Notes: generated by a model not told the origin, from the letters alone. Positions 13,279 through 56,791 are shown, numbered from the stretch's first letter. The stretch: DNA of 64,000 nt from a virus (IMGVR_UViG_2839610755_000002), one strand, 5' to 3'. A program made the numbers and translations.

Positions 13279-13295
13279 CAATTAATTAGAGCAAT
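13279..13295. promoter_or_regulatory. C1 operator-like site upstream of ref
   Basis: ATTAATTAGAGCAAT matches the reverse complement of the recalled C1 operator consensus ATTGCTCTAATAAATTT. Confidence 0.55.
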
Positions 13296-13426
13296 GATAG
13301 ATATTTTATTTATCGTGAGTCACATTTTTTCACTTCAGTATCTGTCTGCTATACTCCTTCTTGATTGATTGGATGCGGAATACAAACCCGCTCTTTTGTG
13401 CAGCCTGGCTCCTTGCCAGGCTTTTT

Positions 13427-13738
13427 TTATTTCATCATGGAAGCTGTTAATGCTTTGGACCTTGCTGAACTGATTGAAAGGACATTGTTAACCTTACCCA
13501 AGAGTTCGCCAAACTCAGACATCACTTTAGCAAAACCTCGCCGTGCTTCTTCCTCGGTAGCATTCATCACGAAATGTTCAGCACTACGCATACTTTTGAC
13601 AGGAAACGCAACGGATATTGAGTCAATATCAGGCATTCTATCGCTCAGCTTTACAGTGACAATGACGGCTGGCGACTGAATATTAGTGCTTACAGACAGC
13701 ACTACATATTTTCCGTCGATGTTGAAATCCTTTCTCAT
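13427..13738 (-). CDS. Cra-like small protein
   Basis: ORF immediately downstream of cre, preceded by GGTGG; position of P1 cra (recalled). Confidence 0.4.
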   Translation of the reverse strand: MRKDFNIDGKYVVLSVSTNIQSPAVIVTVKLSDRMPDIDSISVAFPVKSMRSAEHFVMNATEEEARRGFAKVMSEFGELLGKVNNVLSISSARSKALTASMMK

Positions 13739-13754
13739 ATGCCACCATAAATAT

Positions 13755-13771
13755 CAAATAATTAGAGCAAT
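13755..13771. promoter_or_regulatory. C1 operator-like site between cre and cra
   Basis: Core ATTAGAGCAAT present with flanking mismatches. Confidence 0.45.
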
Positions 13772-13788
13772 TTATTATACATTGACGG

Positions 13789-15305: not shown

Positions 15306-15322
15306 AAGAATTATTAGAGCAA
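15306..15322. promoter_or_regulatory. C1 operator-like site (Op99 region)
   Basis: GAATTATTAGAGCAAT, reverse-orientation match to the consensus. Confidence 0.55.
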
Positions 15323-15383
15323 TAAATTTAGAGAGAAAAATCCCACTCCACCAGCTAAAAACTGGATTGTTTTTCATAGTTGT

Positions 15384-15410
15384 TTGACAATTGCTCTAAT
15401 AAATTATAGT
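15384..15410 (+). promoter_or_regulatory. C1 operator (ATTGCTCTAATAAATTA) overlapping a promoter-like -35 TTGACA / -10 TATAGT
   Basis: 16/17 match to the consensus immediately after a TTGACA hexamer, upstream of coi/c1. Confidence 0.6.
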
Positions 15411-15644: not shown

Positions 15645-15854
15645 ATGGCTTTCATTCAACCAACCATCGACGACGTTAGACATTGCTCTAACGCTTTATC
15701 TGTAGACCCTGCCGAAACCGACGCTGCCCGCGCCATTGCTGAACACTACTCAAAGATATCCAATCAGGAGTACCGCATCACCCAAGACGACCTGGATGAC
15801 CTCACTGACACAATCGAATATCTCATGGCAACTAACCAGTTAGACTCACAATAA
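15645..15854 (+). CDS. coi: Coi, C1 inactivator
   Basis: 69-aa ORF directly upstream of c1; size and position as P1 Coi (recalled). Confidence 0.75.
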   Translation: MAFIQPTIDDVRHCSNALSVDPAETDAARAIAEHYSKISNQEYRITQDDLDDLTDTIEYLMATNQLDSQ

Positions 15855-15870
15855 ATGCACTAATAAATCT
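15854..15870. promoter_or_regulatory. weak operator-like site AATGCACTAATAAATCT between coi and c1
   Basis: 14/17 match to the C1 operator consensus; carries the TGCACTAAT variant core. Confidence 0.35.
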
Positions 15871-15964
15871 ATTATTTTTGTTTGATCCCTCTATAATATA
15901 GGTCAGTAATGACCGGTTTTCTCAGCCGGGCGTTATTGACCATGTCAATTCTGGAGGAGGATCA

Positions 15965-16816
15965 ATGATAAATTATGTCTACGGCGAACAACTGTACCAG
16001 GAGTTCGTCAGCTTCAGGGATCTCTTTCTAAAAAAAGCTGTTGCACGCGCCCAACACGTTGATACAGCCAGCGACGGTCGTCCTGTACGCCCGGTTGTCG
16101 TTCTACCGTTCAAAGAAACTGACAGCATTCAGGCTGAAATTGATAAATGGACTTTAATGGCGCGGGAACTGGAACAGTACCCAGACCTCAATATCCCAAA
16201 GACTATTTTATATCCAGTGCCTAACATCCTTCGCGGTGTGCGTAAGGTTACAACTTATCAGACAGAAGCTGTGAACAGCGTCAACATGACCGCTGGCCGC
16301 ATTATTCATCTGATTGATAAGGACATTCGCATCCAAAAAAGCGCGGGGATCAATGAGCACAGTGCGAAATACATAGAGAACCTGGAAGCAACAAAAGAGC
16401 TAATGAAGCAGTACCCGGAGGATGAAAAATTCCGTATGCGCGTACACGGCTTTAGCGAAACAATGCTGCGCGTCCACTACATTTCCAGTAGCCCTAACTA
16501 CAATGATGGTAAATCAGTTAGTTACCATGTGCCACTGTGTGGCGTGTTTATCTGCGATGAAACTCTCCGTGATGGAATTATCATCAACGGTGAATTCGAA
16601 AAAGCAAAATTTAGCCTTTATGACTCCATAGAACCGATCATCTGCGACCGCTGGCCGCAAGCAAAAATATATCGCCTGGCAGATATTGAAAATGTAAAAA
16701 AACAAATTGCCATCACTCGCGAAGAGAAAAAGGTTAAGTCAGCCGCATCAGTTACGCGCAGCCGTAAAACCAAGAAGGGGCAGCCAGTAAACGACACCCC
16801 CGAAAGCGCGCAATAA
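15965..16816 (+). CDS. c1: C1 master repressor of lysogeny
   Basis: 283 aa, MINYVYGEQLYQEFVSF...; matches the recalled P1 C1 sequence and length. Confidence 0.9.
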   Translation: MINYVYGEQLYQEFVSFRDLFLKKAVARAQHVDTASDGRPVRPVVVLPFKETDSIQAEIDKWTLMARELEQYPDLNIPKTILYPVPNILRGVRKVTTYQTEAVNSVNMTAGRIIHLIDKDIRIQKSAGINEHSAKYIENLEATKELMKQYPEDEKFRMRVHGFSETMLRVHYISSSPNYNDGKSVSYHVPLCGVFICDETLRDGIIINGEFEKAKFSLYDSIEPIICDRWPQAKIYRLADIENVKKQIAITREEKKVKSAASVTRSRKTKKGQPVNDTPESAQ

Positions 16817-16821
16817 ATTAT

Positions 16822-16848: not shown

Positions 16849-17966
16849 TTATTCAGCTGCCACCGGTTTTAACAAGCCAGCATCGAGCAGTTTACGCGTC
16901 AACCACTGCTGGCCTTTACCCGTTAATTGAGGCGTCAACCGTATCTGGTAGCCATCTTCATCATCCAGCACCACTTCTTTCACCGTGAAATACCCCGCGT
17001 TGATGTACTGCTGGAACGGCACATTTTTACGTCCACCGGACGCTATCAGGATGCCGTTCTCCCGTAACCAGACAAACAGCGCGTTTTGCTTAAGTCCAAC
17101 AACCTTTGCAAAATTCCCAATCAGGATCCCTTTAGCTACTGATACCCGGTCGGCAAAATCGACTTTAGGAGCGGCGGCCACCAGCTGCTGATTTAGCTGG
17201 TGGGCTTTCTGTTCCAGAAGTTGCTTTTGTTCAGCCAGTTCGGCAGCCAGGCGTAGGGCTTCAGGAAGCGTCTGGGGGATTGCGATCGGTTGCTGTTCTT
17301 TTTGTCGGAAGTAGCTGTCTTCCAGTTTTTCAAAGAATGCCCATGCCTGATCGGTTTCGAGCATTTTAGCGTGGCGGGCTGCGCCGCGTTCTGTCCAGAG
17401 GGGAGTGAGCGAACATTGCGAGCAATTTTTACAGAGTAGTTTAAAGCTACTCTGTGCTTCAACTCGCGCAATGATTCTCCTTCAACTTTGAAAAAGTGCT
17501 TCCCTTCAACAAAGCGTACTTTGTTCTCATGATGATTTTGGCGAATACGGATTGTTTCTGTCCCATACCCTCTAGCAAGAGTCTCGGTTGTCACTACACG
17601 CACTCCCTGCCATTCCAGAACGGGAATTTCATCAGACTGATTCTGAACAACCACCAGCTCCGATTCCTGAACTGAAGGTGCATGAATTTTTTCTGATTTA
17701 ACGTTAGTTGCTTTCATTCTGTGTGCCTCCTTGCGTGCTTCGGCTGCGACGGTTGCGTAATTCAGATGACCCTGTTCGAGCAGGTATTCGCGGATATCAG
17801 ACAACAGGATACGGTGAACCGCGTTCTTGTCCTTTCTCCGGTAAAGTTGTTTGGTGATCATGAAGTAGTTGGCAATAACGCCTGGTATATCCCTGGTACT
17901 GATACAGGCAGTGTGCTGTTCAATTGCCTCGATCATCTCTTCACGGGTGACTAATGACGTTCTCAT
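16849..17966 (-). pseudogene. antirepressor-like gene, copy A (shared N-terminus, ORF6N/Rha-like middle, KilAC-like C-terminus), split across two frames
   Basis: Track ORFs 17193..17966 and 16849..17364 overlap in different frames. C-terminal part has the KilAC-like motif NVPFQQYINAGYF; first 77 aa are near-identical to the 45268..46302 protein. Confidence 0.5.
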
Positions 17967-18184
17967 AGTCCCTCCTGAGCAGAAGCGTTAACAGGGAGGC
18001 ACCAGTAACTGAGAGAATTGCGTGAATCAGTGGAAAAACGGGCAGAGAAAATACATGGGGCGTCAGGAAGCTGAGAGCGGGCCTCATCTTCTGTTGGTGC
18101 AATAACGAAGTGATAGTGACGTTTTTGGCAGGAGTAAAAGCGCCAGATAAATTCAGGATGAGTTGGGGTAGGGATAGTAGCCAT
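17963..18184 (-). CDS. Icd-like small protein, copy A
   Basis: 73-aa ORF (MATIPTPTHPEFIWRFYSC...) with AGGAGG upstream; overlaps the antirepressor start by 4 nt (ATGA). Arrangement and size resemble P1 icd-ant (recalled). Confidence 0.5.
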   Translation of the reverse strand: MATIPTPTHPEFIWRFYSCQKRHYHFVIAPTEDEARSQLPDAPCIFSARFSTDSRNSLSYWCLPVNASAQEGL

Positions 18185-18502
18185 ATTGGCAGCCTCCTTA
18201 GACGTTGGTATGTAACCACCGCAGAAGAGACCAATCTTGCTGGCGGTGGACTGTACGGAGTTGGCCTTACTGGCGTCCAAGGTAACCAGCCTACCCGAAG
18301 GTAGCCCCATACAGCCCACCATTGTAGAGGTGTGCGTGTACGCCGATACAAAAAAAGACGCGAGCGGCGTCTGTATCGCCTTAGACTTAAGCGGGAGGCC
18401 AATCCCGGCACCCGTTTTAATGAGGTGCCTGATAAGCATAAACCGAAAATGCCTCAAGGCGCAAGAGGTCAGGTTCAATGTAACATCGGTAGCTAAAAAA
18501 CA

Positions 18503-18519
18503 CAATTTATTAGAGCAAA
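18503..18519. promoter_or_regulatory. C1 operator-like site upstream of icd/ant-like module A
   Basis: CAATTTATTAGAGCAAA, 15/17 match in reverse orientation. Confidence 0.55.
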
Positions 18520-21808: not shown

Positions 21809-21825
21809 CAATACATTAGAGCAAT
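21809..21825. promoter_or_regulatory. C1 operator-like site upstream of lpa
   Basis: CAATACATTAGAGCAAT, 14/17 match in reverse orientation. Confidence 0.5.
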
Positions 21826-21826
21826 T

Positions 21827-22870
21827 TTATCTAACGCTCGACGAGTGACTTGTGATAGCGCCGACTCCAAGCGCGTAATCAAAGAACAATCGTTGATGCA
21901 TCGCCAGCCTGCCGTGCGTCTTCTCCCAATTATCGCGGTCACGCTCAATATCACGCTGGCATGACTGGCACAGAGGAATTGCGTAAATGTCATGCGCGCA
22001 TAATCGACTATGACGAACGATATAAGGCGTAATGCGAGCGCCAGCTCCCGCAGCTCCACATCCACAGCACGGACGGGAAGCAACAAAGTCCATGTACTCG
22101 GGTAATTTTAGCGATTGCAGTTTTGGTATTTTGAAATGCGCCATGCCAGGGTCGGAGTCAACATCCACAGGGCATACTTTTGCACGCATCGGCGCGGCGC
22201 GTTCTTCCATCATCTGAACATATGCTGTAGCACGATCGTCGTACGGGCGAATATCCGCCTCTTTCAAAGGTCCGCTATCCTGCGGAGCAGCCTTCATCTT
22301 ATTTATTGATATGCGGCAAACTTCTTCCGGCATCAGGTGCATCATGTTGCGCATGAAAGCCCACCAGCACAGTTCCTGAATACTTAAATCATGGCCATCT
22401 GAAAGCCCCATTTCCTGACGGGCGACATCCAGTATCCAGTTAACGCGATTATTATGCAGCGTTTCTTTCAGCTCATTAAAACCACGCATCCGGTAATGGT
22501 TATCGTGATGCCAGCACAACAACACCGCGCTATTGTCTCGTTCTGCGTGGACAATATGGTTGTCACACCAGCTACGATCTGCGGCCTGGCATTGCCCCTC
22601 TTTCCTGCGCAACCACGCCACCAGCGCGTCAATTCCACCAATACGGCGAAACAGTTCATCGCTGTTAAAAAACGGCTGCAACGCCTCATTTGTTGCCATA
22701 GTTTGCTCGGAAACAACGAGGCCGTCGTCCATGTGCTCGATTAACTCACGCGGCACCGGCTCCATAATAAATTTACGGCCAGCCTCCACCAGCTTTCTGA
22801 CTTCCTGATCCACTTTGAATGTGGCGACGCCAAGCTCTTTTTGTACAAAGGGAGTAATTACGGCTTTCAC
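21827..22870 (-). CDS. PdcB-like protein with Cys/His-rich segments
   Basis: 347-aa ORF between doc/pdcA-like and lpa; contains CWHHDNH and CQSC motifs. Confidence 0.4.
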
Positions 22871-25152: not shown

Positions 25153-25425
25153 TTAAGGCTCACATTTCCAGATGGTATTCTGAACACCCGAACCGGGCGC
25201 TAGATGAGGGTTAGCGTTCGCGCTATGCTGATATACTGCTTTAGACTTCCCATATTGCTGACAGGCTTTATCTGCGGTTTTTTGCAGGCTATCCAGGCCA
25301 TACCAACCATCTGACTGTATGCTTACCTTTTCACCGTCGTTGTATTGCACCATTGCACACCCAGATATAGCCAGTATCGCGCCGACAATAACGCTTTTCC
25401 ATAAAACTCTATGCAACATAGACAA
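25153..25425 (-). CDS. putative lipoprotein
   Basis: N-terminal signal with lipobox-like AISGC. Confidence 0.45.
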
Positions 25426-25997
25426 AAATCCCCTCTGTGAATTGAGGGGATTTTAGCATGGTGATCAGAGATCAGCTTTATGCAGAATTTTATCCACCAG
25501 CGATGTGATTTTTTCTGCCAGGTCATCATTACTTACCCAATCCTGGCGGGCAGCCAGAACGGGCGACAAGGCTAATATTAACTCTCGTCGTAATGATACG
25601 TTCCTTGCTACAGGCGGAATACGTGGTGCTGGTGGTGGTTTAAGCCCCTCGCTCCCTTGTATTTCTGGAGTATTCGGCTGATAGCCATTAGTTATTTTCG
25701 GCGGTATTGGACGAGGACGAAACATCGCGCTACCTCCTACACTCAGGGCAGGTGTTCCCTTCCGCAAAGTAGGGGAAACTGCTATCAAGTTCATCACACC
25801 ATCTGCGATGCTCGTAGCACCAAAAAGCCTCCCACGGTAAACCAAAAGACTTCATCCACCGGGACACTCGATCTGGTATATCTGCTGGTGGCAGTTCTTC
25901 TGGCAATAATTTGCCTGATAATTCCCTTTCCGCCCGCGCCAGCATTCCTTTTAGACTCGCATTCTCTTTTTCAAGAATCTCTATGCGCGCCTGTAAC

Positions 25998-26648
25998 TCA
26001 GCTTTCGTTGGCATGGCCCGCCTCATGCTTATCAGCCACCAGCGGCAATAAAGCCCTGGCCATCTTATGAACCAATAGTGCATCAATAATGCCAAGCGTA
26101 TGCCCCGGCTTAATGTTTAATGCCGCCTCAAGGTGACACCTTTCCAGGCCACTTTTCTCGGCTTGTTTATGATGATCTGGCGTAATAACGTCGCCCAAAA
26201 CACGGCTAATTTTTTCTCGTAATTGCTGGGTGCCAGCACACTTGATCGCTGTATCGTGGATGCGGTTAACCAGTTCGCGATAAACATGCGGCTTAATTCG
26301 GATACGTTCACCGGTGACGCCCTTTCCTGGCGCTGGCACCGAACTATCCGGAATATCCGGATAGTTGCCAGCCTCGTAAGCTACCCGCAGCCAGTGCATG
26401 AATGTTTCAGTGGACACACAACCGCAGTCCACATCGATTTTCGCGCGTTGCTGTTCCAGCCACTGCTCAAAATTCAATCTACACGTATTACTTTCATGTT
26501 GCTCTTTTTGTCTCAAGGCCAGCATCTGCTGGGCTATTTCCAATACTTCATCTGCCGTATATCCAGCACCGTGACCATACATTTCGATACGGGAAATAAT
26601 CTCTGATATACGCTCTTCAGTTATTCTGGTCATTTCTTTTTGCGCCAT
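25998..26648 (-). CDS. hypothetical protein
   Basis: 216-aa ORF; no recognisable motif. Confidence 0.35.
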   Translation of the reverse strand: MAQKEMTRITEERISEIISRIEMYGHGAGYTADEVLEIAQQMLALRQKEQHESNTCRLNFEQWLEQQRAKIDVDCGCVSTETFMHWLRVAYEAGNYPDIPDSSVPAPGKGVTGERIRIKPHVYRELVNRIHDTAIKCAGTQQLREKISRVLGDVITPDHHKQAEKSGLERCHLEAALNIKPGHTLGIIDALLVHKMARALLPLVADKHEAGHANES

Positions 26649-27004
26649 TTCTTTTCACATTCCTTAGTCCATTTTTCAATGTTCATTTTGGCAATATCAG
26701 TCATTCCATCACCTAAGAAATACTTTCTCCGGTACGTCTTGCACTTAAACCACACTACAACAGCCACCAGCCAGAAAATAAAAGGCCATACAGCAATACC
26801 AACTCCAGCCGCGATAAAGCACAATAGCCATAAATGAAGCTCTCCAACTTCTGTTTGCGGCAATATTCTTAAAGAATTAAGCAGCAGACTGAAGGAATGG
26901 TCGTATGCATTGGCGGTATAAGACATGCAATCCATATAATTAAAGTCATAGCCTGCGGCTGCCGCCCATAATGGGCGGTCAAGAAAATGTTTTAGTGTCA
27001 TCAT
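26630..27004 (-). CDS. predicted membrane protein
   Basis: 124 aa with two hydrophobic segments and a basic C-terminus; AT-rich block. Confidence 0.4.
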   Translation of the reverse strand: MMTLKHFLDRPLWAAAAGYDFNYMDCMSYTANAYDHSFSLLLNSLRILPQTEVGELHLWLLCFIAAGVGIAVWPFIFWLVAVVVWFKCKTYRRKYFLGDGMTDIAKMNIEKWTKECEKKWRKKK

Positions 27005-27010
27005 ATAAAT

Positions 27011-27304
27011 TTAAGGTTCAGACCAGTTATCTTCAATAGCAATGCTTAATCTTTGTAGCCATTCTGCTAATTTCAGCATTGCTTCTCTTTCGCTTAAACC
27101 ACGAGGAAAATCATCAAGCGAAATTGTTGGCTTGAAGCCCCCGTAATTATCCATTTCAACAGTCAGATTTTGCTCCAGCACGGTATTCCTTACGCGGCTG
27201 TTGTGTCGAAGCAAATATACTGAACGTGATTTATTGGTTTTATGGTCAAACTGATATTCGGTAAGTATCATCTGGCTTTTGCCATGACTATTACCTCTCC
27301 ACAT
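27011..27304 (-). CDS. hypothetical protein
   Basis: Track ORF 27011..27391 trimmed to the internal start MWRGNSHGK. Confidence 0.3.
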   Translation of the reverse strand: MWRGNSHGKSQMILTEYQFDHKTNKSRSVYLLRHNSRVRNTVLEQNLTVEMDNYGGFKPTISLDDFPRGLSEREAMLKLAEWLQRLSIAIEDNWSEP

Positions 27305-27311
27305 ACTTACC

Positions 27312-27434
27312 TCACTTAATAAAACAACTCCATACGTAGTTGATGATTTTTTCCCACGTAATATAAATATGCACTCCAGCAGAAAAACCAAAACCTACAA
27401 TTACTGAAAAAATCAAAACATTTACTTTTGACAT
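27312..27434 (-). CDS. very small hydrophobic protein (about 40 aa, one predicted transmembrane helix)
   Basis: Hand translation MSKVNVLIFSVIVGFGFSAGVHIYITWEKIINYVWSCFIK in an AT-rich block; below the track size cut-off; coordinates approximate. Confidence 0.25.
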   Translation of the reverse strand: MSKVNVLIFSVIVGFGFSAGVHIYITWEKIINYVWSCFIK

Positions 27435-27482
27435 TATAAATTTTCTCTCGGTGTCGTAGGTGATAGCACCATAATTGATAAT

Positions 27483-27716
27483 TTAGTGAGTTAGCAGTTC
27501 CATTTTTTGGATGATTTCCGCATGAGCATCATCGTTATCAACACTTAACTCGTTTAATGCCTCTCGCACCACATCAACTTCTTCTGGTTGGAAGAAATCA
27601 TCTCGGTAGTCACCAAATAGAACCGAAACAAGCCTGCCACCAGCAACATCAAGATTGGCGCTAACAGGTGGCTCTTTACCATCCTCAAATTCGACTACAA
27701 AAGTTATTTTTCCCAT
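27483..27716 (-). CDS. small acidic hypothetical protein
   Basis: Track ORF 27483..27734 with internal ATG preceded by GGTGG. Confidence 0.35.
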   Translation of the reverse strand: MGKITFVVEFEDGKEPPVSANLDVAGGRLVSVLFGDYRDDFFQPEEVDVVREALNELSVDNDDAHAEIIQKMELLTH

Positions 27717-27801
27717 CGTTACCACCAGCGACAAATTGAATACAAACCCAGTGCTGCCGCCATCACAATTCCTACCGTGGTGAATGCTTCAGGCCAGCTC
27801 A

Positions 27802-28062
27802 TTATCTCACCTCCAGTCTCCATACCGCCTGACCAATCCGGCTGGCATGGGTATCTTTGGATGCTGTTCCGTCTTTAGCCATCTCCATAAGAATTTTGCG
27901 CAAATCTGCCGAACGCCATTCTTCATCAGGAAATTCCTTCTCCATTGCCAACCGCAGATTCCAGGTTGCCATCCTGAATGGATATTCCCCGCCGAGAGCT
28001 TTATCTTGCAGGGCAGCCCGGGAACGCATCACCTGCAAAACCTTCTCTTTTACATCCATCAT
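27802..28062 (-). CDS. hypothetical protein
   Basis: Internal start MMDVKEK overlaps the upstream stop (ATGA), suggesting translational coupling. Confidence 0.35.
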   Translation of the reverse strand: MMDVKEKVLQVMRSRAALQDKALGGEYPFRMATWNLRLAMEKEFPDEEWRSADLRKILMEMAKDGTASKDTHASRIGQAVWRLEVR

Positions 28063-29279
28063 TTCGCCCCCTTCGGAGGTTCTGGCAACGGCATCCAGAA
28101 CAAGACGTTCCCTAACCACGATAAAGTGCCGTCGCTCAACTCCACGTATTCCCCTTGCACCTGTCCTGCCATATACTCGCCGTGCTTTGAATAAATTAAA
28201 ATCCAATCATCTTGAGGGGGCATTCGCTCACTACAGCTTATCCAACCATCCTGAGTTACCGGAAGCGAGAACGGCAGCACATCTCTGTGAACAAGTTTTT
28301 GCTGTGACAGGTTATCCAGAACTTTCTGTACTGCTGCATCACCGAATACACCAAGCGCATCTGCCATAACTCCTACAACCTGATAAGCCTCAGCGCATAC
28401 CGTGGATAAACCATCCTGAGTTACCGGAGAGTTGCCGTGTTCTTTAATGTGCAAGCGAGGTTCACCATCTTTTGGCTCAGGCCACTGGCGCTCCATGTTG
28501 ATCTTCAATTTATCTTCCATAGCAGCGGTAATTTCAGCATCGCTGATGCCAGCACGGCGCTGTGCATCCCACAACAGAAACTGCATATCAGCCCACTCGC
28601 TAAGATCGTCTGGTTCGGCTGCGGCTTCCAGTGCCTCTTTTGAGAGATGTTTCAGCGGGCCAACTGGACCAACACAGCCAAACGTCTTATCTGACCATTC
28701 AGCATGGCGCTGCCGGATTAAATTGCGCAATTGAAGCGATGATCCGTTCTCCTCTGACAACTCTTCATGATTACTTGCAGGTTCGACACCCTGAAGCATA
28801 TCCGCGCGGCAGGCGTTAAGCGCGTTTTGCACGCGTTTAGCGTTCTGTACTTCGTATTTAGGTGCGGCTGCCAATGCCCATAGCCAACCAATTTCATAGC
28901 TATCAGCTTTTGATAGAGCACATTCCATTTCCAGTGTTATTTTCTTAGGTACGAGTTGCCAATCATCTGGCACTACTGGCGCTGGCGGGGCGGTGTAAAG
29001 CGGTGTTATTTCTACCCGAAAATCACCGACTTTATGCAGTCGCCCCCACCGTTCGGCTTCTGCTTTGTCAGAATACATAGCGGTGAACGTATTATATTCA
29101 TGGTCAATTTGCGTGAAGGTTGCCTTCCACGCCACTGGCTCTGCTTCCAGCGATGCCAGCGCGATACGAAACACATTGGCAAGCAGGCTGTCTGAAGATT
29201 GGTTATCGTGCGCCGCATCGCTCAGAAAGCCAGTGATGAATGATTTAATCTCTGCGCTTTCTCTGGTAATAGTTGCCAT
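28059..29279 (-). CDS. DUF550/DUF551-like protein (MazG-like dNTP pyrophosphohydrolase-type, phage-associated)
   Basis: Start MATITRESAE with AAGGAAA upstream; C-terminal WISCSERMPP...VLFWMPLPEPPK resembles the DUF551 signature (recalled). Confidence 0.45.
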   Translation of the reverse strand: MATITRESAEIKSFITGFLSDAAHDNQSSDSLLANVFRIALASLEAEPVAWKATFTQIDHEYNTFTAMYSDKAEAERWGRLHKVGDFRVEITPLYTAPPAPVVPDDWQLVPKKITLEMECALSKADSYEIGWLWALAAAPKYEVQNAKRVQNALNACRADMLQGVEPASNHEELSEENGSSLQLRNLIRQRHAEWSDKTFGCVGPVGPLKHLSKEALEAAAEPDDLSEWADMQFLLWDAQRRAGISDAEITAAMEDKLKINMERQWPEPKDGEPRLHIKEHGNSPVTQDGLSTVCAEAYQVVGVMADALGVFGDAAVQKVLDNLSQQKLVHRDVLPFSLPVTQDGWISCSERMPPQDDWILIYSKHGEYMAGQVQGEYVELSDGTLSWLGNVLFWMPLPEPPKGAK

Positions 29280-29849
29280 ATCTGTTTCCTTATGTGGGTT
29301 AATTTTATTGTGTAGCTTCCTGAATAGTGTAGGCACCTCACTCTCCTTTAGTGCGCAAGTAGTTTTTCCAGCGGTTTTGCGCCGCGCTGCGCTTATCTCG
29401 GACTCCCTCTCTGGCAATTCCAGAAAATGAAAACAACACCACACGGCGATTGCTAACTCTCAACCACTGGCTGGGGTAGCAAAATCTGTATACACGGGAG
29501 ATAAGCATCTTAGCTTTACGGTTTTTCATCGTTTTGTTCTCCGATTAGTTCAGCCATTTTTATTACCGCCCTTTCGGGCGGCATCCCGACATTAATCGTT
29601 GTGGTAACTCATGGCTTCATTTGCAGCATCAACCGGATCAACCTCCCACCAGCAATAATTTGGGTCGGTTCCTTCAGGTGTCCACGGCTCTAATTCATTT
29701 TTTGCTACATTCTCGTCAGCAGTAATTTTAAAAATCTGCTCAGAGAATTTTTTTACCCACTCGTTATATTTTTCCGCGTTAATGGTTTTCTGTGTATTTA
29801 ACATAGATATACCTCCGGTTAAGGATTAAATTTTATTTACAGTGCTGAT

Positions 29850-30209
29850 TTAATATTCAGTTCTGGATTTTGTCGCTCTGCGTATCCGCGCTTTCGCGTT
29901 ACGCTCAATCTGAATTAGCTTTTCTATATTTTTTCGCCTTTCCTGTTCCTCCTGGCGCAATAGTTTTACATCATCTGCCAGCCTGGTTTCTCTTTTCGCA
30001 ACAGAGAGCATCCAGTCAAATGGCTCCACAACTGCACCGCAGATTTTACAGCGGACCTGACGCTCTTTTTCATCAACCCGGACAGAGGCATGATGGCAAT
30101 ATGGTCTTTCCGATGGTTCATAAAGAAAATTAACCTGATTACGTGGGTCATCCTCTTTTACCGGAAATAAAACAATATTACTTAACTCATCTTCTGGTTT
30201 TATTTCCAT
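29850..30209 (-). CDS. small Cys-containing hypothetical protein
   Basis: Internal start MEIKPEDEL with AAGGAG upstream; CHH...CKICG motif. Confidence 0.35.
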   Translation of the reverse strand: MEIKPEDELSNIVLFPVKEDDPRNQVNFLYEPSERPYCHHASVRVDEKERQVRCKICGAVVEPFDWMLSVAKRETRLADDVKLLRQEEQERRKNIEKLIQIERNAKARIRRATKSRTEY

Positions 30210-30879
30210 GCTCTTCTCCTTTGATGTGAATGCCAGCGTCAAACATCATATGCAGCTCTCCTTTTCGAAGCTGGGCGGCTAACTCATCACATATGTGCGT
30301 CAAAGAGCAAAGTTTGATTGATGGGTGTTCGCGCATCATCTCTACCCCCTGCGCCCGAGCTTCAGCCAGGAAAGCGTCGGTGGCTGGAATTTGCGGCATC
30401 CCTCCGTCTGTTGCGCAGATATACGCATCAGATATTTCATCCTGCTGGCCATCAAACACGTAGCAACAGCCCCTGATAAACAGCTTCATTGAGGCATTCT
30501 CCACTGCCAGCGCCGTGCGATTACCATCCAGCTCTGCAATGCGCTGTTTTGCGGCATCCAGTTCAATCGACAATTTTTCCAACTGCTCTTGATGCTTCTT
30601 GTATTCCTGATATGCGTGCCAAGACTGACCTTTGCGCACACTATCAGTGATATCAGTAATCTGTTCTGGTGTTAGCGTGGTCAGTGGCTGTGATGGGAAA
30701 ATAAGCACTTTCCCGGAATCCCAATCAAAACCAGCGTGAATTGACTGAACCTCAACTGAAGGTGTTGAACCAATGCTGCCAGGCGAATGAACAACGATCG
30801 TTACATCCATATCGCGACGATGGCTGTGGTTGTTGGACAAAATACGATTCACCAACTCAGAAAATTTGGAAAATTTCAT
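30187..30879 (-). CDS. Ea22-like coiled-coil protein (paralog 1)
   Basis: Shares IPATDAFLAEARA with the 31163..31900 protein. Confidence 0.4.
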   Translation of the reverse strand: MKFSKFSELVNRILSNNHSHRRDMDVTIVVHSPGSIGSTPSVEVQSIHAGFDWDSGKVLIFPSQPLTTLTPEQITDITDSVRKGQSWHAYQEYKKHQEQLEKLSIELDAAKQRIAELDGNRTALAVENASMKLFIRGCCYVFDGQQDEISDAYICATDGGMPQIPATDAFLAEARAQGVEMMREHPSIKLCSLTHICDELAAQLRKGELHMMFDAGIHIKGEEHGNKTRR

Positions 30880-31162
30880 GCTGATTCCCCTTTCTCTGCT
30901 CTCTCCTGTCGGAACATCACTATCATCAGGTCGCCTTTTGTCGCTATCCTGGCTGTTGTACCTGGTTCAATGCGGCTAAGCTCAAATGCGTCATAGAACG
31001 CTTCTAATGCCTTCTGGCGTAGTTCCTGTTTGCGCCGTTTTTTCCACTGTTTTAGGAAAATGGAACCCAGCCATCGCCATGTACGGGACATGATGTAAAG
31101 CCAACCGAGAAGTGCCAGACCGGTATTTAGGAGCGTATCGATCGTTATTGTCGTGTCGATAT

Positions 31163-31900
31163 TCACTGGCTGCTTCCTTTGCGAATCTGTTCCGCCCATT
31201 CTTCAAGGGATTTCTCCGCATATTCACCAGACAGGCCATCAATCGGGTACGGTTCATTAGCCAACTCTTCTTTCGCTGACAAAATCATGCGTGTAACGTC
31301 GAAAACTTCACGCAAAGACTTATTGATAAATCCGTGATTGAACGCAGCAGCAAGACGGCTGGCGGTATAGTTAATCCCCTCGTTGCGTGCTTCCGCACGA
31401 ATTTCAGCCAGAAAAGCATCGGTAGCTGGAGTTTCGCTGTGGTGTAGGGCATCGTTGATAATCATTGCAGCAACACCAGCCTGCCCTGCATCCGTGACCG
31501 ACACATGCTCAAGAGTTACGGCCATTGCGTGTTTCAGCCCGGCGTTCTCTGCCACCAGCGCCGCGAGATTAGTCTCAAGCTCTGAAATTCGGCACGTGGC
31601 ATCAATATTTGTGTCCTCCAAGCACTTAATTTCACCAAGCAGCTCCAGTGCAACCTTTGGGTTGAACGCGGCAACATGACGAGCGTTGTTCTCTGCATTT
31701 TTCTGTCCATCAAAGCCGGTCCATTTGATAACGTCTTCACATCGTTCATCACCGGGCGTGTGCACCGCATACGTACCAGTACCCGGCGAAATAAATGCGA
31801 CCCATTCGCCCTGTGTTGCCTGTTTTGCTATCTCACGCAGTGCCCGGTAATTAATTTCGCTCACTGGCTGCCTCCTTTGCGGAGTTGCGCTTCGATGCAC
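31163..31900 (-). CDS. Ea22-like coiled-coil protein (paralog 2)
   Basis: Shares TPATDAFLAEIRAEA with the 30187..30879 protein. Confidence 0.4.
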   Translation of the reverse strand: MHRSATPQRRQPVSEINYRALREIAKQATQGEWVAFISPGTGTYAVHTPGDERCEDVIKWTGFDGQKNAENNARHVAAFNPKVALELLGEIKCLEDTNIDATCRISELETNLAALVAENAGLKHAMAVTLEHVSVTDAGQAGVAAMIINDALHHSETPATDAFLAEIRAEARNEGINYTASRLAAAFNHGFINKSLREVFDVTRMILSAKEELANEPYPIDGLSGEYAEKSLEEWAEQIRKGSSQ

Positions 31901-32379
31901 GAAAAAAAAGACTCCCGAGTATGACTGTTAAGAGCTGGTGCGAACGCCGCGTTAAGAACGGCAGCATCACAGCCGTCATCAATATAGAGCGCAATTTTTT
32001 TCTCCAGGCGCGCTTTGGCTTCCTGCAACTGCATACCCCGGCACGCACGCGGGATATAATCAGCAATTTGAGCGATAGCTTTTTCGTTCTGTTTAAACAT
32101 GCTTCACCTCGATAGGCTTGATGGTGTCTAACAGCAGTCGACGGCGCGTATTTTCTGCAAAGTGGCGGCGTCCGGTATCTTTGTGGTAAAACTCATTTTT
32201 GCCGACGACCCACATCCGCTCTGTTTGGTGCAGTTTTTTTACCTGCGGCCCGTCTTTGGTGATCACGGTGCCGGTATGGGTTTTTACGATTGTCATGCCA
32301 CTACCTCTTCGAACAGATGAACGAGACAGGCCGATGCTCGTCCACCTGAAAAACTGACGATTTGATGCATACTCACGGT

Positions 32380-32844
32380 TTATTCCTGAATGCGCTTAAA
32401 CTCGATTACCCACACCAAGGGATTAGCGTTCCAGCTTTCTTCACCATAGATGGATTCCCACAGGCGCTGGAACGCAACCTTGGCCATTGCGAAATCCCCC
32501 TTGGGAGTAAGGAATGTTCCCGGGTGATCAGGAAGCAAACTCCCAGCAGGCGGAACGCCCTCAGCCCTTGCATCGCATTCGCTGATATCGTTCAACCGTT
32601 CAACGCGCACGTTGGTAATTTCCAACAGAATGCGTGATGCCCATCGCGGCATGTGAATTGATGGACGCCACCCACCATCAAACTTTTCATTCACAGTGTG
32701 AGGTTTCCAGTCGGCATCATCGGGTATCGACCATAAGCCGTAATCACCAGGTTTTTGCTCGCAACTGGCCCGATAAATCCTTGCTGCGTTCTTCTCATCG
32801 CCACGACAAAGGTTGTCGTTCCAGTACACTGCAACCATCCTCAT
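32380..32844 (-). CDS. hypothetical protein
   Basis: 154-aa ORF overlapping the 3' end of 32795..33100 in another frame. Confidence 0.3.
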   Translation of the reverse strand: MRMVAVYWNDNLCRGDEKNAARIYRASCEQKPGDYGLWSIPDDADWKPHTVNEKFDGGWRPSIHMPRWASRILLEITNVRVERLNDISECDARAEGVPPAGSLLPDHPGTFLTPKGDFAMAKVAFQRLWESIYGEESWNANPLVWVIEFKRIQE

Positions 32845-33100: not shown

Positions 33101-33278
33101 GCATCCCCCTTACCCATGTGCGACGATGCCGCCAAAAGTGATAGAGAACAGCCAGAAATAGATCGCGGCCATAATGATTTTGAATGCCGTGTTCATATTT
33201 TCAGCTCCTGTGATTGATTGGATACATGCCGCGCCTTGCGGCATGTTTTTATTTTCACTTCCCCTGCCTTAAAAATCA

Positions 33279-33295
33279 AGATTTATTAGAGCAAT
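33279..33295. promoter_or_regulatory. C1 operator-like site
   Basis: AGATTTATTAGAGCAAT, 16/17 match; overlaps the stop of the HAD-like gene and precedes the next minus-strand operon. Confidence 0.55.
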
Positions 33296-49618: not shown

Positions 49619-49645
49619 GGATTACTGCCAATTTTGCTTACGCTT

Positions 49646-50473
49646 TTATTTCACCGGAACAAACGGAACAGCGGTATTACTGGTCATATACTGCGGTAAT
49701 GTACCGTTCCATTTGTTGATCGCTTCCAAGTCCATAACACCGGGGTTCTGGCGCAGAGCTTCACCACGTAAACGAATGGCATCAGCTTCGGCCTGGGCTT
49801 TTGTGCGAATAGCATCAGCCTGTCCGGCAGCTTCCGCGCGCAGCATGTTGGCCTCTGCTTCACGTTGTTTGACCTCTTGCTCGCGTTGCAGGGTTTTTTG
49901 GTTTGCCGTGACTTTGGCGTTAATACTGTCAATAACTGTTGGCGGGTATTCTGGCTTACCTACATAAGAGAGGCTCATCACCTGAATGCCGATTGGCGTC
50001 ATTTCTTCCTGAATGTCTTTAAGGGCTGCATCAAGCAATTCAGATTTGCCACCGTCGATAAATTTGTCGGTGGTCATTTTGCTGGCTAATCGGTTCAGAG
50101 CATCTGCAACCTTCTGGCGTAGATCGGTATCAGTAATATCATCTACACCTTTGCGATAGGTCTGAAATACCGTTGTGACTTTTGCTGGATCAACCTTGTA
50201 GGCTACGCCGATGTGGTAACCAATGGTTGTTCCGTCGCTCATCTGGAAGCTGAACGGCTCATCGTATGTCTTCATTTGCTTAAAGGTCGGGAAGATATAA
50301 ACTTCAGTATTCAAGCCTGTCCAGTAGCGACCAACGCCAACTACTTCACCGATACCTTTATCATCCCCCAGCTTATTTACTTTGATCCCTACGTTACCTG
50401 GCTCTACCCGATCGCATCCGGTCAGACATAAAGAACCCAAAATAATCGCTGCACTAATCAACGTTTTTTTCAT
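49646..50473 (-). CDS. SPFH/band-7 family lipoprotein (Plp-like)
   Basis: Signal peptide with lipobox LTGC, then a prohibitin-like domain and Ala/Glu-rich coiled coil. Confidence 0.55.
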   Translation of the reverse strand: MKKTLISAAIILGSLCLTGCDRVEPGNVGIKVNKLGDDKGIGEVVGVGRYWTGLNTEVYIFPTFKQMKTYDEPFSFQMSDGTTIGYHIGVAYKVDPAKVTTVFQTYRKGVDDITDTDLRQKVADALNRLASKMTTDKFIDGGKSELLDAALKDIQEEMTPIGIQVMSLSYVGKPEYPPTVIDSINAKVTANQKTLQREQEVKQREAEANMLRAEAAGQADAIRTKAQAEADAIRLRGEALRQNPGVMDLEAINKWNGTLPQYMTSNTAVPFVPVK

Positions 50474-51643: not shown

Positions 51644-51730
51644 TGGTGGGGAGTGATGGAGTCGAACCACCCGAGTCGCAATGACAGTAGATTTACAGTC
51701 TACCCCGCTACCCCTACGGACTAACTCCCC
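51644..51730 (-). tRNA. putative class II tRNA, Tyr-like (GUA anticodon, long variable arm)
   Basis: 87 nt: acceptor GGGGAGT/ACTCCCC, anticodon arm GTAGA-CTGTAAA-TCTAC, 15-nt variable arm, T-arm GGTGG-TTCGACT-CCATC, CCA. D-arm pairing is irregular. Confidence 0.45.
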
Positions 51731-52301: not shown

Positions 52302-52475
52302 AAACTGGACGCTCGTAACGCACTTCGGCGTTGCCACTTAGGCGCATGGTCAACCTGGCAACTCGGTGGTTTGTCTGGGAGGACTAGGCCCAGCCATGCT
52401 TACCGCCGCGCCTGTCGCGGCTAACAGCTAAATCGCTCTATAAATCACGATTCATTGAGGTGATATTACACTAAT

Positions 52476-52492
52476 AAATTTATTAGAGCAAT
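52476..52492. promoter_or_regulatory. C1 operator, perfect consensus match, overlapping the dmt stop codon
   Basis: AAATTTATTAGAGCAAT is the exact reverse complement of ATTGCTCTAATAAATTT; preceded by ACACTAATAAATTT giving a near-palindromic double site. Confidence 0.7.
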
Positions 52493-55400
52493 ATACCCAA
52501 AACGTCATGAGCTACACCTCGAGTGTCCCCCTTACAAGACACAGAACGTCTGGCAAAAAGAGGTTCCACTCTGAAGCCACTGTCATGATAAAGCTCTCTG
52601 ATGTTTGGCGCGCCACTGTTAGTAATGAGAACCTTTGCACCTCGACGATGAGCATCCGTCAACAGAGACACCAGGCGTTTTTGCTCTTCAAACTTAAAGT
52701 CATGACCGGAATAGTTCGTGAATCCCTCTGTATTTGGAAGCGGTTCATACGGCGGATCGCAAAAGATGACATCTCCTTCTCCGGCAGCTTCAATCACCGC
52801 TGCAAAATCACCGCATACAAACTCAGACCGCCCTTCCGCACCGAGGAAGGCTTCCATCTCCTGTAATGGGAAATACGGAGTTTTATACTTCCCATAACCG
52901 ACATTGAACTCACCGGCCTGGTTGTAACGCGTCAATCCGTTAAAACAATGTCGGTTCAGGAACAAAAACGCCGCTGCGCGATGTAAATCATCATAGACTT
53001 GTTTGTTAAACGCATTCCGTACTGCCAGGTATCCTTCCTGTGTGTTGTAGTCCTGGAAGAAACGATGTGCCAGAGTGATAAGTGAATGCGCCTCGCGTTG
53101 CAGAGTCTTGTAAAAGTTAATCAGGTCAGCATTCACATCATTTAGCAGATTTTCCTGGTATCCGGCATTCATGAAGACAGCTCCGCCACCAACGAAAGGT
53201 TCAATCAGGCGCTTCCCTTCTGGCAAATAGCGAAAGATTTGTTCCAGAACACCAAATTTTCCACCAGCCCATTTGAATATGGACCGTTCGAATTCTGCCG
53301 CTGGTTTAACTTTTCGCTCTTTTGTTTCACTTCCTTCTTTCTGCCGACATACGGCCTTAGTAATCCGATCGCCAATCCAGCGCATTACTGGTATTGCCAT
53401 ACTATTGCCGATCGCTTTGTAACGCGGTCCGTCAGCTGCAAGCATTGCGGCCTCTTCTTCGCTTAAATCTGGATAGTGATTGTGCAGATATGCCAGTTCA
53501 TCTGAATTAACTTTTTTACGCTTTTCCGTAGGGATCAACGTATGCCAATCAGGAAAACCTTGCAGCCTTTCACATTCGACAGGGGTAAGACGGCGCATTC
53601 TACCGTCGCCGAGCAATACAATTGGTGCTTCATGGTTACATGTCAAAGTTGGTGCCGAATTATCGGTTTTTATCTCAGCCCCTCCTTGCCCATGTGCCAT
53701 GGCAATTATGTTTGTATCATCGCAAGTTCTGATAGCGATGTTTGAAGTATATCTGGTAGTTTCCTTCCCCTCGCCTCTGCTCGGCGCAATATTCCGGCGC
53801 ACGCCTTCGAACTCAAAAAGTACCGTTGCGGGATCGAGATCTGTTCGAGCACTTGCGACAACAAACACGCGTCGGCGTCGTTGTGCCACTCCGAAGTATT
53901 GGGCATCAAGGATTCTCCAGGCCACTTTTCGCTGCGGTCCATAAATACAACCACACTGCGGCCACTTTGGAACATGGCAACCGGTTTTGCCATCCCACCG
54001 CCAGAACGCGTTGCTTTTTCCTGATTCAGGTCGATCACCTGGTTCAAATGGCACATCTTCTCCAGCCAATCCGGCAAGGAAACATCCGAAGGCGTTATCT
54101 GCCGATGACAAGACTCCTGGGACATTTTCCCAGACGATAACGGCTGGTTTGAGAAATGACTCAGCCCGTTTGTCGTCAATTGCATTTGCAAGCTCCACAT
54201 ACTTTAAAGTTAGCGCGCCACGCTCATCATCAAGCCCACCACGTAATCCCGCGATACTGAATGCCTGACAGTTATGGACCACCGCACCATTGAGGATATA
54301 GGAATGATCACCTTCGACTTCTATGTTGTATACAGTATCTAGGCCTACCGATTTAAACTCTTTGACTGTTCGTAAAAGCATTCCATGAGCCAATCTTGAT
54401 TTACGTGACAATTTCTGCGGGCAGATTGTTACCTGATAATAATTCCGTTGATTTACCACGCGATCCTCGATCACTTTTTTGGGCTCAACTTCAATAAAGC
54501 TGACCGAAGAAACATAACCACAAGTCTGTGACAACCCCGCAACGCCCCAAGCAAGCGCAGAACTAACACTATTAATTCTAAATCCCGCTTTACCACTTGG
54601 TGTCCCATCAGTATCAAGATAGCCTTGTAAAAACACATGACGCAATGGATGCGACATCACCCATGCAGGGATACGCTTAGCATGGCTTAACTCGCCAAAA
54701 TGTTCATTAAGCCAATTGGCATAACACGTATCATTCAAGGTTACTTTGATGCTCCCTCGGATTTCGCTTGCCACGGAAAATATGTTTTCTGGTATGCGGC
54801 AATGAAACTTTCTCAATTTCTGGCAATTTATGCCAAAAACAACCGCCTTCTTAGATTTACCTCTCCATCTCCTAATATATCCATCGCCAACATAAGCGCC
54901 CGCAAGATACATAGCCTGTTCTTCAGACAAGAACCGAGAACAAATATCTGGAAATGCAATATTGAAATTAGTTAGAGCGCACCATTGATATCCCGGCATA
55001 TCACATGCTGCTCGCCATTCCGGTTCAGACAACAACTCTCTCTTAAAATATGTGCCATTTTTCCGGGTGTTTTGGGCTTTCCACCGAACAGCCAGGAAGG
55101 GATGGTCATTGGTTGTTCTTATACCTAAAGGCTGCCCAACGGCATTAAGTAACCCCGTATTAGCTATTTTTGAACCAACTCTTTTTACTTGTTGTAACCG
55201 CCCGAGATGACTGACTACGTAATCACCAGGGCAAACATTTTCTATTGGTTTATAGCCATTTTTACAAAGAACCATATGCCCCGCGGTAAAACATGGTGTT
55301 CCCCCGACGAGCACGTCAGGGGATTCGATTTCCCCAGCCAAGACTTTTTTGGCAAGTTTTTTCATGTCGCCAAGGTTGGCAACATGGGGCCAGCGGAGCG

Positions 55401-55524
55401 CAAGAACGGCCGATGGAAAAGGCTCGATTTCAGCAAACCACGCCGGACGCATACCCAACGGTTCCCAGGCAATACTCGCGGCTTCAATTCCACTGCAAAC
55501 AGATCCATAGCACAGCTCTTTCAC
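52483..55524 (-). CDS. dmt: Dmt bifunctional DNA methyltransferase (N-terminal C5-cytosine MTase interrupted by an intein; C-terminal Dam-like N6-adenine MTase)
   Basis: C5 motifs I ([11 protein letters not shown]), IV (GGTP|CQAFSIAG, split by the intein) and VI (VIVWENVPG); Dam-like KWAGGK and DPPY in the C-terminal half. Confidence 0.8.
54271..55293 (-). other. intein (341 aa) with LAGLIDADG homing-endonuclease domain inside dmt
   Basis: Starts with Cys (CFTAGHMVL), has TTNDHPF (block B-like), [12 protein letters not shown] and [11 protein letters not shown], ends ...NGAVVHN followed by Cys; excision restores [12 protein letters not shown]. Confidence 0.7.
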
Positions 55525-56426
55525 TGCTTAGCCTCTCCGCCAAGGGCATTTACCAGAGCATCAACCAGGCACGAAATTTCACTGGTCAACAGGAAGAAAT
55601 CTGCGTCCAGTCGCTGCGCAACATCTTCACTATCAATATCAGAGTTCTGCTCAAGCAATTCATCCGCAAATTTGACGCTGGTAAGGCTGAAGTTATGGTC
55701 CAGTGTAAATTTAATGCGGTTCTGCCAGTCGAGTGCCAACTTAGTGACGAGCTTGCCAGCTTCCAGGTGTGTGGAAATTTCATCGCTTCCCAAATCCTGC
55801 TTTTTCACTCGGGCAATACCGCCATCCTCAAGCACTGCCTTAAGTTCTGCCGCATCCCCCATTTGAAATCCCTGTGGAGCACTACCATCACGTACCCAGT
55901 CGGTCAGCGTTAATTCAATGGGATTTTCAACACTCAGGGGAACAGCAGGAAGAGAACCCAGAGACTTACGCATAAGCGCGAGCATATCCTCTGCCTGCCG
56001 CGCGCTGGCATTGATATAGATACGTTTAGTTGAACCGTCGTAGATCGCCTGGATAACAGAAAACTTTGAAAAAGCCCGTGGCAGAAGAGAATGCAGAACT
56101 TCGTCTTTCAGGGAGTCCTTCTCTGTTTTCTTCAGTTTACGCGCTTGTTCTTGCTGAAGTTTTTCAATTTTTTCTTGAATAGCTCGCTGGATAACCGGCG
56201 GGGGAAGAATTTTTGTTTCGCGCTTTGCTTCAACAAGGATAAAACCATTTCCATGCATAGCGATAACTTCAGAATTATCACCAAATGGCGATACAAAACC
56301 GAACTTGGCCATATCCTGACTACCGCATGGCGTGAAAAGGATCATTTTCTTTTTATCTTCTAAGTCGGTCAGATCCGCCTCACGAGAAAGTTTATAAATA
56401 GTAATGTTTTTCCAGTGCTTAAACAT
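55521..56426 (-). CDS. hrdC: HrdC, RdgC-like recombination-associated protein
   Basis: Internal start [13 protein letters not shown] resembles the RdgC N-terminus (recalled); about 301 aa. Confidence 0.6.
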
Positions 56427-56775
56427 GTTGTAACCCTTGAATATCAACCACAGAAAGCTCGTCTTTGTAGAAAAAGGCCAGGTTGTGGCACCCCCTCGTT
56501 TGAGCGTATGAGCTGGGACCAATTTCGTTCTTCCAGACAAATGGCTTCAAATCCGTACGGCGAAGCATAAAAACGCGATTTATTCCGCTCTGATTCCCAA
56601 TGAGGCAAAAGCCTTCTTTCACCTTGATAGCCTGCAAGTTGTCGAGTTCACCGCTGGTTACACGGCTATCGAACTCTTTGCGGCTTATTAGCTCCATCTG
56701 CATCTGACGACTCCAAACAAATGCCCATTGAAGGGCGATGGCTGAATGGTACCGAAAATACGACATAAAAAACAA
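56419..56775 (-). CDS. Uhr-like small protein (upstream of hrdC)
   Basis: 118-aa ORF with alternative start; first gene after the operator-like site at 56775. Confidence 0.35.
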
Positions 56776-56791
56776 TATTTATTAGAGCAAT
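56775..56791. promoter_or_regulatory. C1 operator-like site upstream of the uhr-hrdC-dmt operon
   Basis: ATATTTATTAGAGCAAT, 16/17 match. Confidence 0.6.

Follow-up and report, generated by a model that had tools for sequence, protein, structure and literature searches.

The 64,000-nucleotide stretch IMGVR_UViG_2839610755_000002 (the whole of it is referred to as the window) was assigned by megablast to the P1 family (Punavirus), and it is 99.8% identical across 25 kb to the plasmid pTX376-2 of E. coli O157:H7 (NZ_CP038288). A gene map was made by tblastn with P1 proteins. The blastn map showed the window to be reversed relative to P1 (AF234172); in P1 terms it runs through lyz/pro/prt/darB, mat-ref-c8-cre-lox-immC-c1, pacBA-lpa-...-hot, the pmg operons, the tail genes, ban, dmt and oriR to the parA end. 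The window encodes a repressor, c1 (15965-16816, + strand; 283 residues, 98.9% identity to P1 C1.100), the C1 co-repressor gene lxc (bof; 10495-10743, + strand; 100% identity to P1 Lxc) and Coi (97% identity to P1). A short asymmetric motif recurs throughout this gene map, and judged from the sequence, the sites that carry it very probably serve as operators for a master repressor C1 of the P1 type, the element being a P1-like plasmid prophage of E. coli O157. In P1, C1 attaches to each asymmetric 17-bp site as a monomer, and Lxc strengthens the binding. The repressor binds 22 dispersed operators with the asymmetric consensus ATTGCTCTAATAAATTT (PMC8546580); Lxc is the co-repressor and Coi and Ant are C1 antagonists (PMC8546580, PMC8198154), and the c4-icd-ant operon is repressed by C1 (PMC8198154).

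The 11-mer ATTGCTCTAAT was found as 11 exact matches in the window (0.05 expected; 0 of 100 shuffles), starting at 13285, 13761, 15313, 15390, 21815, 33285, 35371, 35426, 46843, 52482 and 56781; written as 17-mers the same sites start at 13279, 13755, 15307, 15390, 21809, 33279, 35371, 35420, 46837, 52476 and 56775. The variant TTGCTCTAAT occurs at 18503 and 46821 and sites of the ATTGCACTAAT type occur at 15854 and 39044. With up to three mismatches the 17-mer consensus gave 17 matches (0.35 expected), and ATTGCTCTAATAAATTT was matched with near-invariant core positions 2-11. In an unbiased k-mer count no 10-, 11- or 12-mer of the window was more over-represented than the motif core, and Chi sites formed the next class. 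A position weight matrix (PWM) was trained on 19 P1 operators (AF234172) that carry the annotation 'phage repressor C1', and expectations were taken from second-order Markov simulations. The PWM scan, which the first-pass annotation had proposed as a check, returned 20 window sites of at least 14 bits (range 15-28 bits; 0.58 expected) and 19 of at least 16 bits (0.12 expected), while the number of matches of 8-13 bits was near the chance expectation. All 13 strong and both weaker sites of the earlier census were recovered with coordinates within one base (15306 became 15307), and their identity as C1 operators was upheld by the consensus match, by the cognate C1, Lxc and Coi encoded alongside and by orthology to P1. 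As a full list the census fell short: it missed 12612-12628, 15682-15698, 15865-15881, 38137-38153 and 52465-52481, together with a 17-bit site at 3310-3326.

Each site was aligned pairwise to P1 with its 50-bp flanks and the promoter hexamers annotated in P1 were overlaid. P1 (AF234172) carries 20 protein_bind features annotated 'phage repressor C1'; 16 window sites, the degenerate Op99b included, align to P1-annotated operators, and the annotated -35/-10 hexamers are conserved around all of these P1-orthologous sites. Omat/Op2b (CATGCACTAATAAATAT; 12612-12628, - strand; 20.5 bits; identical to P1 2628-2644) overlaps the ref stop, with the Pmat and LPmat hexamers conserved, and Oref/Op2a (13279-13295, - strand; orthologue of P1 1962-1978) lies between the -35 and -10 of P2ref. 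Oc1e/Op99e (15307-15323, - strand) overlaps with its 3' end the -35 of P4cre (cra-cre), Oc1d/Op99d (15390-15406, + strand) lies between the -35 and -10 of P1coi (imcA-imcB-coi-c1), and Oc1c/Op99c (15682-15698, + strand; 15.2 bits), identical to P1, is located inside coi/imcB. The bivalent Oc1ab/Op99ab (15854-15881) consists of arm a (15854-15870, + strand) and a degenerate arm b (15865-15881, - strand) over the -35 of Pc1 (autoregulation). Olpa/Op94 (21809-21825, - strand) overlaps the -35 of Plpa, from which the late-promoter activator gene is transcribed. The pmgT operon (25153-33295) is headed by OpmgT/Op88 (33279-33295, - strand), and PpmgR (pmgR-pmgS) is flanked by Op86b (35371-35387, + strand) and Op86a (35420-35436, - strand). 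Oppp/Op83 (38137-38153, + strand; 19.5 bits) is followed by O26/Op82 (39044-39060, + strand) in the divergent gp26/pmgL control region. The bivalent Obanab/Op72ab (52465-52492, with Op72b from 52465 and Op72a from 52476; identical to P1 68667-68694) lies over P1ban and P2ban, contains the dmt stop and heads the tRNA-SPFH gene-ban-dbn operon. Odmt/Op68 (56775-56791, - strand) overlaps the -35 of Pdmt (uhr-hrdC-dmt).

The P1 alignment and the gene map bore out the earlier assignments of sites to ref, cra/cre, coi/c1, lpa, uhr-hrdC-dmt and both icd/ant modules. To the site at 13755, which precedes c8, no gene had been assigned. Two readings of single sites were rejected: 15854 and 39044 are no doubtful weak variants, being Op99a and Op82 of the ATTGCACTAAT type, and 52476 heads neither an accessory nor the dmt operon, being Op72a of the ban operon, with 56775 as the head of the dmt operon. 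Several sites had also been said to overlap stop codons of upstream genes. The dmt TAA (52483-52485) does lie inside an operator core and the pap stop shares one nucleotide with the operator at 33295; the pdcB stop (21827-21829) adjoins its operator across a 1-nt gap. The same sites are present in pTX376-2, which carries in addition Op51, Op53 and Op21 in the part outside the window. Compared with the P1 set (AF234172/NC_005856: Op2a, 2b, 21, 51, 53, 55, 68, 72ab, 82, 83, 86ab, 88, 94 and 99a-e), the window shares the 17-bp motif, the repressor, the gene and promoter positions and the mixture of mono- and bivalent sites; it adds a site before c8 and the heads of two extra cassettes, and Op21, 51, 53 and 55 lie outside it. 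A further candidate operator, ATTGCCCTAATGTATTT (3310-3326, - strand; 17.1 bits), falls within the 5' end of darB and precedes the prt-pro operon, whose orientation it shares. It is identical in P1 (17166-17182), where it lies unannotated about 85 bp upstream of LPpro, it is kept in pTX376-2, and in an E. albertii plasmid without an annotated darB it stands 127 bp ahead of the portal gene. It may be an unrecognized weak C1 site.

From these positions, C1 (15965-16816) would sit on each 17-bp site, overlapping or abutting the -35, the spacer or the -10 of a sigma-70 promoter, and would by this placement shut off the gene behind it. The genes so repressed in plasmid lysogeny would be ref, mat, cra/cre, coi/c1, lpa (the late-gene switch), the pmg operons, gp26/pmgL, the ban helicase operon, uhr-hrdC-dmt and the antirepressor cassettes. 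We infer binding and repression at every site of the element from the sequence. The P1 operators are inherited in place, the cargo brings none of its own, and C1 would also gate the antirepressors of two extra self-contained c4-icd-ant cassettes.

The first-pass annotation had included the accessory cargo in the C1 regulon and had placed operators upstream of two accessory-gene operons. The sites concerned (33279, 35371/35420 and 52476) are the backbone operators Op88 (pmgT), Op86a/b (pmgR-pmgS) and Op72a/b (tRNA-ban-dbn), position for position as in P1. Inclusion of the cargo holds by position only, within the Op88 and Op72ab operons; it does not hold by way of cargo-specific operators, as the PWM scan found no site of at least 13 bits in the 6-kb insertion described below, in 10741-11859, in the IS629/IS1203 copies or in the repA region. 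Matches of 8-13 bits in these parts (29684, 26985, 11093, 11745 and 61495), which occur at about the chance rate, were rejected as operators of the cargo.

Relative to P1, pmgT of the window carries a 6-kb insertion (26380-32386), and tblastn placed P1 PmgT residues 93-239 at 32386-32832 and residues 232-308 at 26150-26380. The insertion consists of a dozen small lambdoid-type open reading frames (ORFs), all on the pmgT strand (-), including Ead/Ea22, DUF4752 and dATP/dGTP pyrophosphohydrolase+DUF551 genes; pmgU-like ORFs follow after pmgT. In the Op72ab operon an SPFH-domain gene (49630-50460, - strand; pTX376-2 annotation) replaces tciABC, and an extra tRNA-Tyr (GTA; 51644-51730, - strand) lies between tRNA-Asn and tRNA-Thr. 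It is possible, if on the doubtful side, that the cargo stands outside the C1 regulon, being served by its own internal promoters or insulated from Op88 in a tolerated hot spot (the pap-lxr variable region). This would agree with the pap-hot interval being RD-5, one of the regions in which P1-like plasmids are known to differ (Venturini 2019), and ranging from 2.3 to 9.2 kb in length, with the predicted internal promoters before upfM in the pap-hot stretch of P1 and with one promoter-like match inside the cargo (29684-29655, - strand). Promoter-like matches in the region, however, number 6 against 14.5 in shuffles, many of the same-strand cargo ORFs have overlapping or abutting starts and stops, and the insertion lies within the pmgT reading frame. 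Of 27 relatives, 25 have an interval of 4-9.2 kb and two the P1-type length of 2.3 kb, and Op88 is kept as the single operator at the head of every variant. A simple scan of the - strand between Op88 and 25454-25425 showed no strong terminator before about 25440, the hairpins there being weak (3-4 G-C pairs, no clean T-run). Since one Op88 heads every variant, the insertion is on the same strand and no strong terminator intervenes, the Ea22-type cargo is probably co-repressed by its position inside an old C1 operon, and the same probably applies to the SPFH gene.

Four strong sites have no annotated P1 counterpart: 13755, 18503, 46821 and 46837. The first, ATTGCTCTAATTATTTG (13755-13771, - strand; 22.5 bits), is located 17 bp ahead of the c8 ATG, within the 50 bp that separate cre from c8. 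An extended -10, TGTATAAT (13781-13774), read from the sequence, ends 3 bp before the site, so that the transcript would start inside the operator. Laboratory P1 and P7 read ATTGCTATAAT here, a change of C7 to A that creates TATAAT, and phiW39 and the window read ATTGCTCTAAT; position 7 is C in all 19 annotated operators of the matrix. For comparison among relatives, up to 80 IMG/VR loci were taken around each of c1, dbn and pap and the orthologous 17-mers were extracted. The site might instead be a mere promoter element, with TCTAAT as the -10, or neutral shared sequence without operator function. In favour of this, no operator is listed here for P1, the phage in which binding was studied, TATAAT stands at this place in P1 and P7, and a location downstream of the predicted Pc8 is unusual. 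P1 and P7, being changed at the invariant C7, could not have revealed binding, however, and with 22.5 bits the site outscores seven annotated P1 operators. Its 11-bp core is intact in 55 of 62 IMG/VR relatives despite an upstream flank that is the most variable stretch measured, and it varies about 19 times less per position than that flank. The promoter-element or neutral reading is unlikely, and the site at 13755 is a likely operator at the start of a c8 transcript.

The remaining three sites head two cassettes of the P1 immI type (Op51-P51a/P51b-c4-icd-ant1/2), with the same order of parts. Compared with P1, the window has an added icd/ant module between c1 and pacB and, between gp5 and dbn, a module that is 80% identical in DNA to P1 immI. 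Neither cassette is at the canonical immI position (sim to kilA-repL); both are additional to the canonical copy, which in the near-identical pTX376-2 lies outside the window. The pacB-c1 cassette (16849-18519, - strand) comprises an operator, an isrK-like leader, a C4 RNA, icd and a frameshifted ant. Its operator TTTGCTCTAATAAATTG (18503-18519, - strand) starts 3 nt after the pacB stop, with a putative promoter TTGTGT-17-TACATT, and all 37 relatives with the module retain an intact operator core. The leader (18351-18428, - strand) scored 60.8 bits and the C4 RNA (18239-18326, - strand) 75.9 bits in Rfam, and icd and ant were found by tblastn to Icd and Ant1. The leader resembles the isrK-antirepressor locus of Salmonella Gifsy prophages (Rfam RF01394) in standing upstream of a C4-type RNA and an antirepressor; it differs from Gifsy isrK in being placed in a P1-type plasmid behind a C1 operator, where it is a sequence match. 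The ant gene (16849-17966, - strand) is frameshifted into ORFs 17193-17966 and 16849-17364 by comparison with the intact 371-residue homologue of E. albertii p06-3542; the C4 RNA, icd and operator look intact.

The dbn-gp5 cassette (45241-46853, - strand) comprises a double operator, P51a- and P51b-like promoters, a1b1 targets (c4-a1b1; 46721-46773, - strand; Rfam), a C4 RNA (46568-46653, - strand; Rfam 70.7 bits), icd (46299-46520, - strand) and an intact ant (45268-46302, - strand), the latter two found by tblastn, and a terminal hairpin (45241-45262, - strand; ATGCCCGGTTGATGCCGGGCAT) in which the pacB-c1 cassette likewise ends. The 33-bp palindromic double operator ATTGCTCTAATAATTTTGATTTATTAGAGCAAA (46821-46853) lies 46 bp after the dbn stop and consists of two inverted arms that share 1 bp; in all 5 orthologous loci the two arms are retained. 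P1 Op51 corresponds to the first arm only, and the second arm takes up the spacer of the counterpart, by alignment, of the P1 promoter P2c4/P51a. Putative promoters are TTGATT-17-TACCAT at 46837 and, downstream, a P51b-like TTGATC-17-TATAGT. Like P1 Op72ab and Op99ab, the palindrome is composed of two inverted 17-bp C1 sites arranged tail to tail over a promoter. The arms of Op72ab and Op99ab overlap by 6 bp (28 bp in total, offset 11 bp), whereas those of 46821-46853 share 1 bp (33 bp in total, offset 16 bp); this geometry, which no P1 operator has, would place two C1 monomers roughly on opposite faces of the helix. An operator combined with TTGxTT(-35) is a layout common to the new sites, Op99e, Op88, Op68 and Op51.

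The arm at 46821-46837 could alternatively be the non-C1 half of an RNA or DNA hairpin acting as a 3'-end stabilizer or terminator of ban-dbn, or as a cassette boundary or recombination structure. As RNA the palindrome folds stably (-15.6 kcal/mol, z = -5.1), it lies 46 bp after the dbn stop, and the same palindrome heads icd/ant cassettes at four genome positions in relatives, which fits a module boundary. Against this, no U-tract follows the stem on either strand, the arm alone scores 21.1 bits as an operator in the PWM and lies within the spacer of the promoter aligned with P51a, and Op72ab and Op99ab provide a precedent for inverted double operators. A non-C1 role of this arm is rather improbable; its terminator version, a stable hairpin lacking the U-tract, was rejected as an explanation of the palindrome and kept as a minor rival.

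In both extra cassettes the C4 RNA is accompanied by a/b target boxes that match it, and complementary b'/b2 boxes were read from the sequence. The C4 loops differ from that of P1 and are accompanied by compensating changes in their targets: P1 has TCACTAAC/GTTAGTGA, the dbn-gp5 cassette TCATGTAC/GTACATGA and the canonical copy of pTX376-2 TCACAATC/GATTGTGA, and the pacB-c1 cassette is built on another scaffold. One window cassette also differs from P1 immI in its two-armed operator (one-armed in P1) and the other in its frameshifted ant. The pattern TTGCTCTAAT-N11-ATTAGAGCAA was found in 17 P1-like IMG/VR loci and heads icd/ant wherever the flank suffices. Double operators occupy several positions in relatives, namely dbn-gp5, lydD-pro, mat-c8 and a dbn..c1 rearrangement. 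A c4-icd query matched 1,133 places in 685 plasmids of PLSDB, and E. albertii p06-3542 carries five cassettes with an operator at each head, two of them bivalent. In the locus IMGVR_UViG_2548876964_000015 (L262), an icd/ant cassette with a bivalent operator comes after dbn, and c1-coi-imcBA adjoins the cassette on its far side. The arrangement gives the impression that the dbn-gp5 and pacB-c1 cassettes recombined and that the genome between them was rearranged or deleted in the process; cassettes present in several copies may be substrates for recombination. For RCS47 and pTZ20_1P an insertion of ant between pacB and c1 has already been noted, and icd-ant homologues for the res-mod region of pSvP1 (Venturini 2019). 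For multi-copy immI cassettes this was the only work on the topic found; subscription journals lay outside the search, and an earlier description is possible. The differing C4 specificities suggest that antirepressor cassettes with distinct specificities build up in these elements under the control of a single C1. We tentatively propose that C1 operator, promoters, C4 RNA, icd, ant and terminal hairpin form a self-contained movable cassette found at no fewer than five junctions (sim-kilA, pacB-c1, dbn-gp5, lydD-pro and mat-c8; up to five per plasmid, each copy examined having a C1 operator at its head), that the differing C4/target specificities of the three copies compared in this lineage would give a multi-specificity superimmunity array under one C1, and that a natural c8 operator has been lost in laboratory P1 and P7.

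The canonical operators are nearly invariant among the relatives: Op99c is identical in 80 of 80, Op99d in 72 of 74 and Op72ab in 61 of 63, and the Op2a core is conserved in 54 of 60. Calculated on unique sequences, the minor-allele fraction per position was 1.4% in the core (positions 1-11), 3.6% in positions 12-17, 7.4% in the upstream 30 bp and 4.3% in the downstream 30 bp, figures that are supportive only and partly reflect shared ancestry, the relatives being very close (C1 at least 99% identical). This closeness is one of several observations that weigh against a single C1 regulon of working operators. Op99c, the degenerate Op99b and the site at 3310 are weak or located inside coding sequence. 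With its ant frameshifted, the pacB-c1 cassette may leave the operator at 18503 little to gate beyond the c4 and icd products, and internal promoters of the cargo might escape C1. The P51a-like promoters at the heads of the new cassettes were not flagged by the consensus scan (8 of 12 matches, below threshold); they are retained as an inference from the alignment to the annotated P2c4 of P1. Chance or compositional matches in AT-rich intergenic DNA, in turn, are so improbable in view of the 11-mer count, the PWM excess and the positional orthology to P1 that they were rejected as the source of the motif.

Outside the operators the window departs from P1 in several places. The res/mod genes are replaced by about 1.1 kb (10741-11859) that encodes a PIN-domain protein according to the annotation of a relative, and RepA (60436-62686) is just 41% identical, the relative's annotation giving a RepB-family initiator. 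The dmt gene (52486-55524, - strand) is longer, with about 1 kb extra (54270-55291) between P1 Dmt residues 78 and 78-264; in the relative's annotation it is one Dam-family methyltransferase of 1,013 residues, compared with 754 in P1, and an added or exchanged domain seems more likely than a disruption. Two insertions of about 1.3 kb of the insertion sequence (IS) family IS3 (41406-42716 and 58156-59462), in opposite orientation, interrupt gp7 (tail stability) and ppfA. Both copies are marked by ALIL pseudoknot matches (41742, + strand; 59013, - strand) and are IS629/IS1203-like according to the relative's annotation. Because gp7 and ppfA are interrupted, the window copy is probably defective as a phage; in pTX376-2 the IS is in rdgC instead and gp7 is intact. 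The tblastn search with P1 DarB gave two segments (residues 1-284 and 282-2255) overlapping at 4100-4107, which suggests that darB is frameshifted. The Chi octamer GCTGGTGG is present in 53 copies across the window (1.9 expected; for example 1044, 3435, 33829/33844 and 39825/39839/39966), some of them as close inverted pairs, for instance within the pmgS-pap terminator hairpin (33826-33854).

For the most part the finding recovers the known C1 regulon of P1 in a related element, to which the extra operators and the pattern of cassettes add modestly. Its value lies mainly in annotation: the operators of this P1-like plasmid of E. coli O157:H7 are mapped completely and checked, and the idea that cargo genes acquired C1 sites of their own is corrected. 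If co-repression by position is real, the lambdoid-type cargo in the pmgT and ban operons would be silent in the lysogen and expressed early after induction, which is relevant to how phage-plasmids carry accessory and, elsewhere, resistance genes. The multi-copy cassettes with differing C4 specificities and the c8 operator lost in laboratory P1 and P7 would bear on superinfection immunity and on how well laboratory P1 stands for natural P1-like elements; if the reading of the c8 operator is true, control of c8 in the wild would differ from that in the textbook strains.

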